Shown here piece by piece: positions 22,092 through 23,297 of a stretch of 40,286 bases of DNA. A program made the translations under genes and the position numbers. The notes below the pieces were generated by a model. It had not been told where the DNA came from, did no database searches, and worked only from the letters and a program-made list of their open reading frames with translations. The DNA comes from a virus (lineage: Duplodnaviria; Heunggongvirae; Uroviricota; Caudoviricetes): positions 1 through 40,286 of the IMG/VR virus record IMGVR_UViG_2541047822_000001. The stretch is one strand, 5' to 3'. Every line of letters starts with the position of its first letter. The first letter of the stretch is position 1.

Positions 22092-23297
22092 ATGGCGGTT
22101 GATATTAAAGATGTCGAACAGGTCGCGCAGGAGCTGCAGCAGAAGTTTGACGACTTCAAAGCAAAGAACGACAAGCGCGTGGATGCGATTGAGCAGGAAA
22201 AAGGCAAGCTTGCCGGGCAGGTGGAAACCCTGAACGGGAAACTCAGCGAGCTGGAAAATCTCAAAAGCGACCTTGAAAAAGAGCTGCTTGAGCTGAAACG
22301 TCCGGCAGGTGGTGCGCAAAATAAACTGGCCACCGAGCATAAAGAGGCGTTTGTGGGCTTCCTGCGTAAAGGCCGTGAAGACGGTCTGCGCGATCTGGAG
22401 CGTAAGGCATTGCAGGTGGGTACCGATGAAGACGGTGGCTACGCCGTGCCGGAAGAACTGGATCGCAACATTCTTAACCTGCTGAAAGATGAAGTGGTGA
22501 TGCGTCAGGAAGCCACGGTGATCACCGTTGGCGGTTCCGACTACAAAAAACTGGTGAATCTGGGCGGTACGGCTTCCGGATGGGTGGGGGAAACGGATAC
22601 GCGATCCCAGACTGCCACCTCCAGACTGGAGCTGATTGAACCTCTCATGGGGGAAATTTACGGCAACCCGCAGGCTACCCAGAAAATGCTGGACGATGCC
22701 TTCTTCAACGTGGAGGCCTAGATCAACAGCGAGCTGGCAACCGAATTTGCCGAACAGGAAGAAATTGCCTTTACCTCAGGCGATGGCACCAAGAAGCCGA
22801 AAGGGTTCCTGGCGTATGAATCCACTGATGAAACCGACAAGGTCCGGGCGTTCGGCAAACTTCAGCATATTGTATCCGGCGAAGCGACCGCGGTGACCGC
22901 AGACGCCATTATCAAACTGATTTACACGCTGCGTAAGGCACACCGCACTGGCGCGAAGTTCATGATGAACAACAACAGCCTGTTTGCCATCCGTCTGCTG
23001 AAAGACACCGAGGGTAACTATCTGTGGCGTCCTGGGCTGGAACTGGGGCAGCCATCCTCTCTGGCGGGTTACGGTATCGCTGAAAACGAGCAGATGCCGG
23101 ATATTGCCGCGGATGCGAAAGCCATTGCATTTGGTAACTTCAAACGGGGTTACACCATCGTTGACCGTATCGGTACCCGCATTCTTCGCGATCCGTACAC
23201 CAATAAACCGTTTGTCGGTTTTTATACCACCAAGCGCACCGGCGGCATGCTGGTCGATTCGCAGGCCATCAAACTGCTGAAGATTGCAGCGGCGTAA
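22092..23297 (+). pseudogene. major capsid protein (HK97 family) interrupted by an in-frame amber codon
   Basis: Track ORFs 22092..22721 and 22893..23297 are in the same frame and the intervening sequence is open; the only interruption is TAG at 22719..22721. Both halves are MCP-like (N-terminal coiled-coil delta domain, GGYAVPEE..., C-terminal ...FGNFKRGYTIVDRIGTRIL...). Confidence 0.8.

Follow-up and report, generated by a model that had tools for sequence, protein, structure and literature searches.

Does a major capsid gene that is cut in two by an in-frame stop codon belong to a prophage that has lost the ability to form virions, or is the stop read through by its host? The question is raised by a stretch of 40,286 nucleotides of a tailed-phage genome, hereafter called the window. 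The initial annotation offered both answers: a prophage defective for virion production, or a host with an amber suppressor. Our analysis argues strongly that a nonsense mutation, recent and spontaneous, struck the capsid gene of an SfI/SfV/e14-type prophage that is otherwise complete, has an HK97-like head and a Mu-like contractile tail, and is integrated at thrW. The features on which this reading rests are collected in Table 1.

Table 1. Coordinates of the main features of the window.
Feature	Position	Strand	Remarks
thrW, tRNA-Thr(CGU)	1369..1444	+	adjoins proA
attL core, 46 nt	1399..1444	+	identical to SfI attP core (46/46); 3' end of thrW
Q-type late antiterminator, intact	12906..13658	+	bears on polarity of the nonsense codon over the tail genes
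Large terminase subunit, intact	18281..20014	+	577 aa; ATPase and nuclease Pfam domains
Portal protein (Phage_portal), intact	20208..21449	+	Pfam; comparison with 22AR0750
Prohead serine protease (Peptidase_S78), intact	21391/21427..22077	+	216/216 aa identical to 22AR0750
Major capsid protein gene, HK97 fold, PF05065	22092..23297	+	401 codons broken by one amber codon
209-aa ORF	22092..22721	+	ATG start; AGGAG Shine-Dalgarno 5' of the start; expected translation product
Former Dcm site, CCTGG in relatives, CCTAG here	22717..22721		sequence comparison
Amber TAG, codon 210, from TGG (Trp) via G22720A	22719..22721	+	comparison with relatives
134-aa ORF	22893..23297	+	GTG start; same frame as the 209-aa ORF; C-terminal remainder of the capsid frame
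Mu gp44/P-like baseplate gene, 7-nt deletion	30965..32050	+	one GAAAAAA at 31998..32004, two in tandem in relatives
Pin/Gin-type invertase, truncated to 41 codons	36786..36912		shared with 22AR0750
GmrSD gene, intact, 629 aa	37010..38899	-	GmrSD_N and GmrSD_C domains; type IV, modified-DNA restriction enzyme
IS5-like element, ISKpn26 family	from 39306		beyond GmrSD

The prophage shares with phages SfI, SfII, SfV and SfIV and with e14 a terminase, a ymfR-like gene, a portal gene, an S78 protease, an HK97-type capsid gene and a Mu-like tail, arranged in this order. Phage SfI is inducible, displays a head and a contractile tail by electron microscopy and integrates at thrW (PMC3636060). Its genome (JX509734 / NC_027339) is 98.7% identical to the window over positions 20001..34978, and both elements have the same att core and lie in thrW beside proA. 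A 417-aa ORF of the aldehyde-dehydrogenase family is found upstream of thrW in the window, and its counterpart in a relative is annotated proA. The two phages differ in several respects. The match to SfI ends at about 34978, short of the gtr genes of that phage, and the window prophage lacks the O-antigen modification genes gtrA, gtrB and gtr(type). An invertible tail-fibre segment with tail-fibre assembly genes is found there, together with the truncated invertase, GmrSD and IS5, which occupy the position held by gtr genes in Shigella Sf phages. The immunity, early and lysis modules also differ, and SfI carries tRNA-Asn and tRNA-Thr genes downstream of Q, a region of the window in which ARAGORN finds none. 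Finally, the capsid TAG and the 7-nt baseplate deletion distinguish the window from SfI. Since the gtr cassette is absent, the prophage is an e14/SfV-like relative and not a serotype-converting phage.

Apart from the capsid and baseplate genes, all prophage genes that were tested are intact. The integrase, the repressor with its HTH and S24-peptidase domains, the CII-like regulator, the replication genes and Q are full length and free of stops in comparison with close relatives, as are the holins, the endolysin, the Rz1-like lysis protein (LysC), the HNH protein and the small terminase subunit. The large terminase was judged from its 577-aa ORF and its two Pfam domains.

Translation of the capsid frame gives a lone stop, the amber at codon 210. 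A single in-frame amber at about this codon had been noted before, and this position proved correct together with all the others given with it. The frame follows the portal and S78 prohead protease genes, which is the HK97-type gene order. When its conceptual translation, with an X at the stop, was searched against Pfam, residues 115-398 matched PF05065 (Phage_capsid) over positions 1-280 of the 280 in the profile, with E = 8.9e-78 and a score of 261.9 bits for a cut-off of 24.2. Because this one full-length match crosses the stop, the locus is one split capsid gene and not two genes. The 209-aa fragment holds the N-terminal stretch of about 114 residues that precedes the domain, and about the first third of the domain itself. 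The GTG start of the 134-aa ORF is located 172 nt past the TAG, within the domain. We thus rejected this ORF as a separate gene and regard it as an artefact of ORF calling; an independently expressed downstream half, which would have spoken against the initial annotation, is not borne out. No uninterrupted frame able to encode the whole capsid fold is present, the TAG at codon 210 breaking the only one. On sequence grounds, the gene is a member of the family by descent and functionally a pseudogene. Its halves have been deposited as adjacent proteins, EQT64655.1 (209 aa) and EQT64656.1 ('HK97 family phage major capsid protein'), and these entries should be corrected to the two parts of one capsid pseudogene. 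As a candidate terminator, the GC-rich hairpin that follows the capsid gene at about 23306..23325 was rejected: it lacks a T-run, and its fold is no more stable than that of shuffled sequence (z = -1.2).

The ancestral state of codon 210 was deduced from homologous genes, as the initial annotation had proposed. The capsid gene differs from that of E. coli 2015C-3163, which encodes the intact 401-aa protein WP_000257507.1, at one position in 1,206 nt: A22720 replaces G, giving TAG in place of TGG. The earlier view that one nonsense codon splits an otherwise intact HK97-type gene is thus upheld, both by this sole difference and by the Pfam match across the stop. The gene is also 99.9% identical to the capsid gene of SfI. 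Megablast detected it in 1,098 of 5,426 complete E. coli genomes, with best matches at 99.9% and none at 100%. A 61-mer with the TAG in its middle matched 974 complete-genome E. coli records, of which none is identical and 596 differ at exactly one position; a TAG-bearing 35-mer had no exact match in viral, genome or metagenome contig collections. TGG was read directly in three relatives (loci L001, L012 and L013, the last being the prophage of E. coli 22AR0750). The tryptophan is conserved much further away, in the head protein 9GYI and in 6TB9, the capsid protein Rcc01687 of the Rhodobacter capsulatus gene transfer agent. The latter gave the best sequence match among solved structures (E = 5.1e-76, alignment over residues 31-400), although it is a distant homologue from an alphaproteobacterial agent whose gene is intact; the motif ...veaWinse... 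aligns with ...ietWlanr... around the mutated site. These alignments show that the ancestral codon 210 was TGG (Trp), as read from the homologues. Since relatives carry TGG and the TAG allele is absent from the genome and contig collections, TAG is derived and private to one lineage.

The sequence context of the mutation suggests how it may have arisen. Dcm methylates the inner cytosine of CCWGG, and most E. coli carry dcm and vsr. The ancestral capsid gene has a CCWGG site at this place: G22720 is the fourth base of CCTGG on the top strand and lies opposite the inner cytosine of CCAGG on the bottom strand, so the observed change is a G:C-to-A:T transition affecting this inner cytosine. Of all single-base substitutions in the ancestral gene, 120 would yield a stop codon and 24 of these are G:C-to-A:T. 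Only one of the 120, and hence one of the 24, falls on a Dcm-methylated cytosine, and this is the observed G22720A. Assuming an active Dcm in the host, the 5-methylcytosine opposite G22720 would deaminate to thymine, and the resulting T:G mismatch, if it escaped very-short-patch repair, would be fixed as TAG. We infer that the TAG arose by deamination of 5-methylcytosine and not by a replication error; this concerns a single event whose context fits, and an error of replication at this base would leave an indistinguishable sequence. In PMC12606429, G:C-to-A:T changes at the second C of CCAGG are given, after Coulondre et al. 1978, as the dominant amber hotspots of lacI. The likeness is close, as a G:C-to-A:T change of the inner C in CCAGG, here on the bottom strand, again produces an amber codon. 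However, the lacI hotspots come from a measured spectrum, whereas the capsid TAG is one natural event in a prophage, at a site whose methylation is putative.

The nearest relative among complete genomes is the prophage of E. coli 22AR0750 (NZ_CP195454.1), in which the capsid (TGG) and baseplate genes are intact and the early and lysis modules differ from those of the window. Over window positions 17705..40286 (22.6 kb) only four differences separate the two: a terminase frameshift proper to 22AR0750, the capsid TAG, an indel of 7 nt near 32004, and a change at 29018 with no effect on the sequence of the tape-measure protein. All proteins compared to the right of, and including, the ymfR-like protein are 100% identical except for the portal (99.8%), the capsid (99.75%) and the baseplate P protein. 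Among the structural proteins compared, which extend from the ymfR-like one to those of tail-fibre assembly, the capsid alone has a stop.

The indel near 32004 constitutes a second lesion of the window prophage. Where SfI and E. coli 22AR0750 have GAAAAAAGAAAAAA, a single unit is found in the window. The loss of 7 nt frameshifts the last 10 codons of the baseplate gene, turning an end in ARKKKKARVQEDPF into an end in ARKKPEYRRTRSDEDD, each directly followed by the stop, and makes the gene overlap the start of the next one by 14 nt. The deletion occurs in none of 1,075 complete-genome records and is thus private; all assemblies that were read have it along with the capsid TAG. Such a further private lesion of the late operon points to relaxed selection on virion production, as far as can be read from sequence.

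The right end of the prophage had also been taken as a sign of decay, the truncated invertase and the nearby IS5 being considered consistent with a defective element. This does not hold: the 22AR0750 prophage has the same arrangement, base for base, in an element whose capsid gene is intact, and it shares the GmrSD gene as well. Because they are shared with a prophage whose capsid gene is intact, the invertase and IS5 say nothing on the capsid lesion.

What would the capsid lesion mean for the phage? Termination by RF1 at codon 210 would release a 209-aa product from which about two thirds of the capsid domain, on its C-terminal side, are missing. A fragment lacking most of the HK97-type capsid domain should be unable to build a shell, so that no proheads would form and no DNA would be packaged. 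Since the integrase, repressor, replication, Q and lysis genes are intact, excision, replication and lysis would still be expected upon induction; the cell would be killed with no release of infectious particles. Strong polarity of the nonsense codon on the tail genes is not expected, because the late operon would be read under the Q-type antiterminator. Tail production might therefore continue under antitermination, unless the baseplate frameshift blocks it. Other routes could soften the defect. Up to 4 copies of the capsid gene per genome were found by megablast in other complete E. coli genomes, and a second intact homologous copy elsewhere in the host could complement the defect or repair it by recombination. 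Low natural read-through of UAG could also allow rare particles. Of the two alternatives of the initial annotation, the prophage defective for virion production is thus the better supported, with a private TAG, a second private lesion in the late operon and a tryptophan conserved in distant homologues. The prophage probably cannot make virus heads and illustrates ordinary prophage decay.

The inactivation might instead have been selected, a headless prophage being kept for its cargo (GmrSD, immunity) or for free tailocin-like tails, and the lineage gaining from the lack of released infectious phage. It is true that, leaving aside the lesion of 22AR0750 itself, two of the three differences from this relative disrupt virion genes while other genes are intact, and that the tail genes, Q, the lysis genes and the GmrSD cargo are preserved. 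However, two events are too few, and one of them hits a baseplate gene, contrary to selection for working tails. The lysis genes remain, so that induction would still kill the cell, and the TAG lies at a known type of mutational hotspot, so that selection is not needed to account for it. We consider this explanation very unlikely. Its boldest form, in which the headless prophage still excises, replicates, lyses the cell and makes Mu-like contractile tails, acting as a tailocin-like killer and a carrier of GmrSD, seems highly unlikely; were it true, the amber at a Dcm hotspot would be a lock on virion production that can be reverted in one step.

We then considered whether a suppressor tRNA of the host reads UAG at codon 210 and gives a full-length, working capsid protein. 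In its favour, the stop is followed by A (TAG A), and in E. coli a purine 3' of UAG makes suppression more efficient; the head module is otherwise intact. In contrast, the sole tRNA gene detected by ARAGORN in the window is thrW, with anticodon CGT, and the host is presumably a clinical isolate, not a laboratory su+ strain. At a site where Trp is conserved in distant homologues, function may not be regained with Gln, Tyr, Ser or Leu, the residues that common suppressors insert. Moreover, an amber suppressor would not correct the frameshift present in the same operon, which itself suggests relaxed selection. Our literature search gave nothing usable on how common amber suppressors are among natural E. 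coli. Suppression at codon 210 is therefore very unlikely in our view.

A sequencing or assembly error in a truly intact gene would also explain a single-base difference from many intact genes, the more so as the source is a draft scaffold assembly. The window is identical to NCBI GCA_000458825.1 scaffold KE700731.1, with 0 mismatches in 19,322 nt. We infer from adjacent accessions that this assembly represents strain HVH 188, the source of EQT64656.1 being given as E. coli HVH 188 (4-2356988). The Logan assembly of run SRR958366 shows 100% identity with the window along 20,630 nt, TAG included, and that of a second run, SRR770151, carries the TAG and the 7-nt deletion. Four contigs have the frameshifted baseplate protein and the split-capsid neighbourhood, and the TAG was read directly in three of them (L002, L021 and L022). 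As the Logan assemblies of both runs reproduce the TAG and four contigs carry both lesions, the caveat of a sequencing error, raised when the stop was first noticed, is largely removed, and an error has become highly improbable.

Lastly, a functional stop, serving programmed read-through or recoding or separating two capsid halves expressed on their own, is scarcely conceivable: it has in its favour only the existence of two ORFs, whereas the TAG is absent from all relatives examined and hence not a conserved stop, both ORFs belong to one Pfam domain, the downstream one starts only at the GTG inside this domain, and no promoter-like site was found in 21300..23700.

A recent, spontaneous nonsense mutation in the capsid gene therefore remains the preferred explanation. 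It would make the prophage a case of very early decay, in which the late operon has acquired two disabling lesions of its own but is nearly identical in all else to that of its nearest relative with an intact capsid gene. One A-to-G reversion and the gain of one 7-nt repeat would restore the sequence of the intact relatives, which is relevant to inducing or using this prophage. Prophage predictors scoring the element 'intact' would be wrong on virion production. The mutation is also a clean natural example of a textbook route, from a Dcm-methylated CCWGG site to an amber codon. Nonsense pseudogenes in prophages and amber mutations at Dcm hotspots have both long been known, and nothing here departs from them; beyond annotation, the importance of the case is little.

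Several further observations concern the prophage and its relatives. The large terminase gene of 22AR0750 (L013 15990..17722) is annotated as frameshifted, with a 1-nt indel at window position 18967; either the sister prophages carry different single disabling lesions or this frameshift is a sequencing error in the record. In the immunity region, a BRCT-domain gene (5380..6300, + strand, 296-306 aa) is convergent with, and slightly overlaps, the cI-like repressor gene (6283..6969, - strand), and its protein is 100% identical in E. coli HB-Coli0. At 4044..4722, set against L020 3207..4508, the window is without the yfdQ-yfdP module of about 1.3 kb found in its closest early-region relatives, HB-Coli0 and 22AR0750. 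Between Q and the holins, a 213-aa ORF (14131..14772) differs from the relatives and has no Pfam match. The absence of yfdQ-yfdP and this ORF are ordinary mosaic differences.

Two inverted repeats of 20 nt, at 34918-34937 and 36705-36724, flank the invertible tail-fibre segment. A Logan contig of SRR770151 (L022 13955..13985) matches the window as far as 34937, after which it carries 36693-36704 in reverse complement, which corresponds to the flipped orientation. The segment is thus inverted in SRR770151 although the invertase of the prophage itself is truncated. This suggests inversion in trans by another invertase of the host, or mixed or alternative orientations between samples.

Capsid proteins of 209 aa were also encountered on many other contigs, NCBI assemblies included, as if the hotspot had been hit independently, and we rejected them as a recurrence of the mutation: the contigs that encode them end 0-2 nt around codon 209. 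One such contig continues with TG, as in the wild type, and TAG is found only in L002, L021 and L022. Another 209-aa variant (P0007), recorded under Salmonella Derby and obtained through the exact-protein look-up, is likewise a contig-end artefact; these spurious recurrences arise because the look-up uses the exact protein sequence. Contigs ending within 0-2 nt of capsid codon 209 are present in many unrelated assemblies (loci L003-L011 and L014-L019), and other truncation lengths of the capsid protein are far commoner than 209 aa, such as a 195-aa form present on 197 contigs. These contig ends probably mark mosaic boundaries between co-resident prophage copies.
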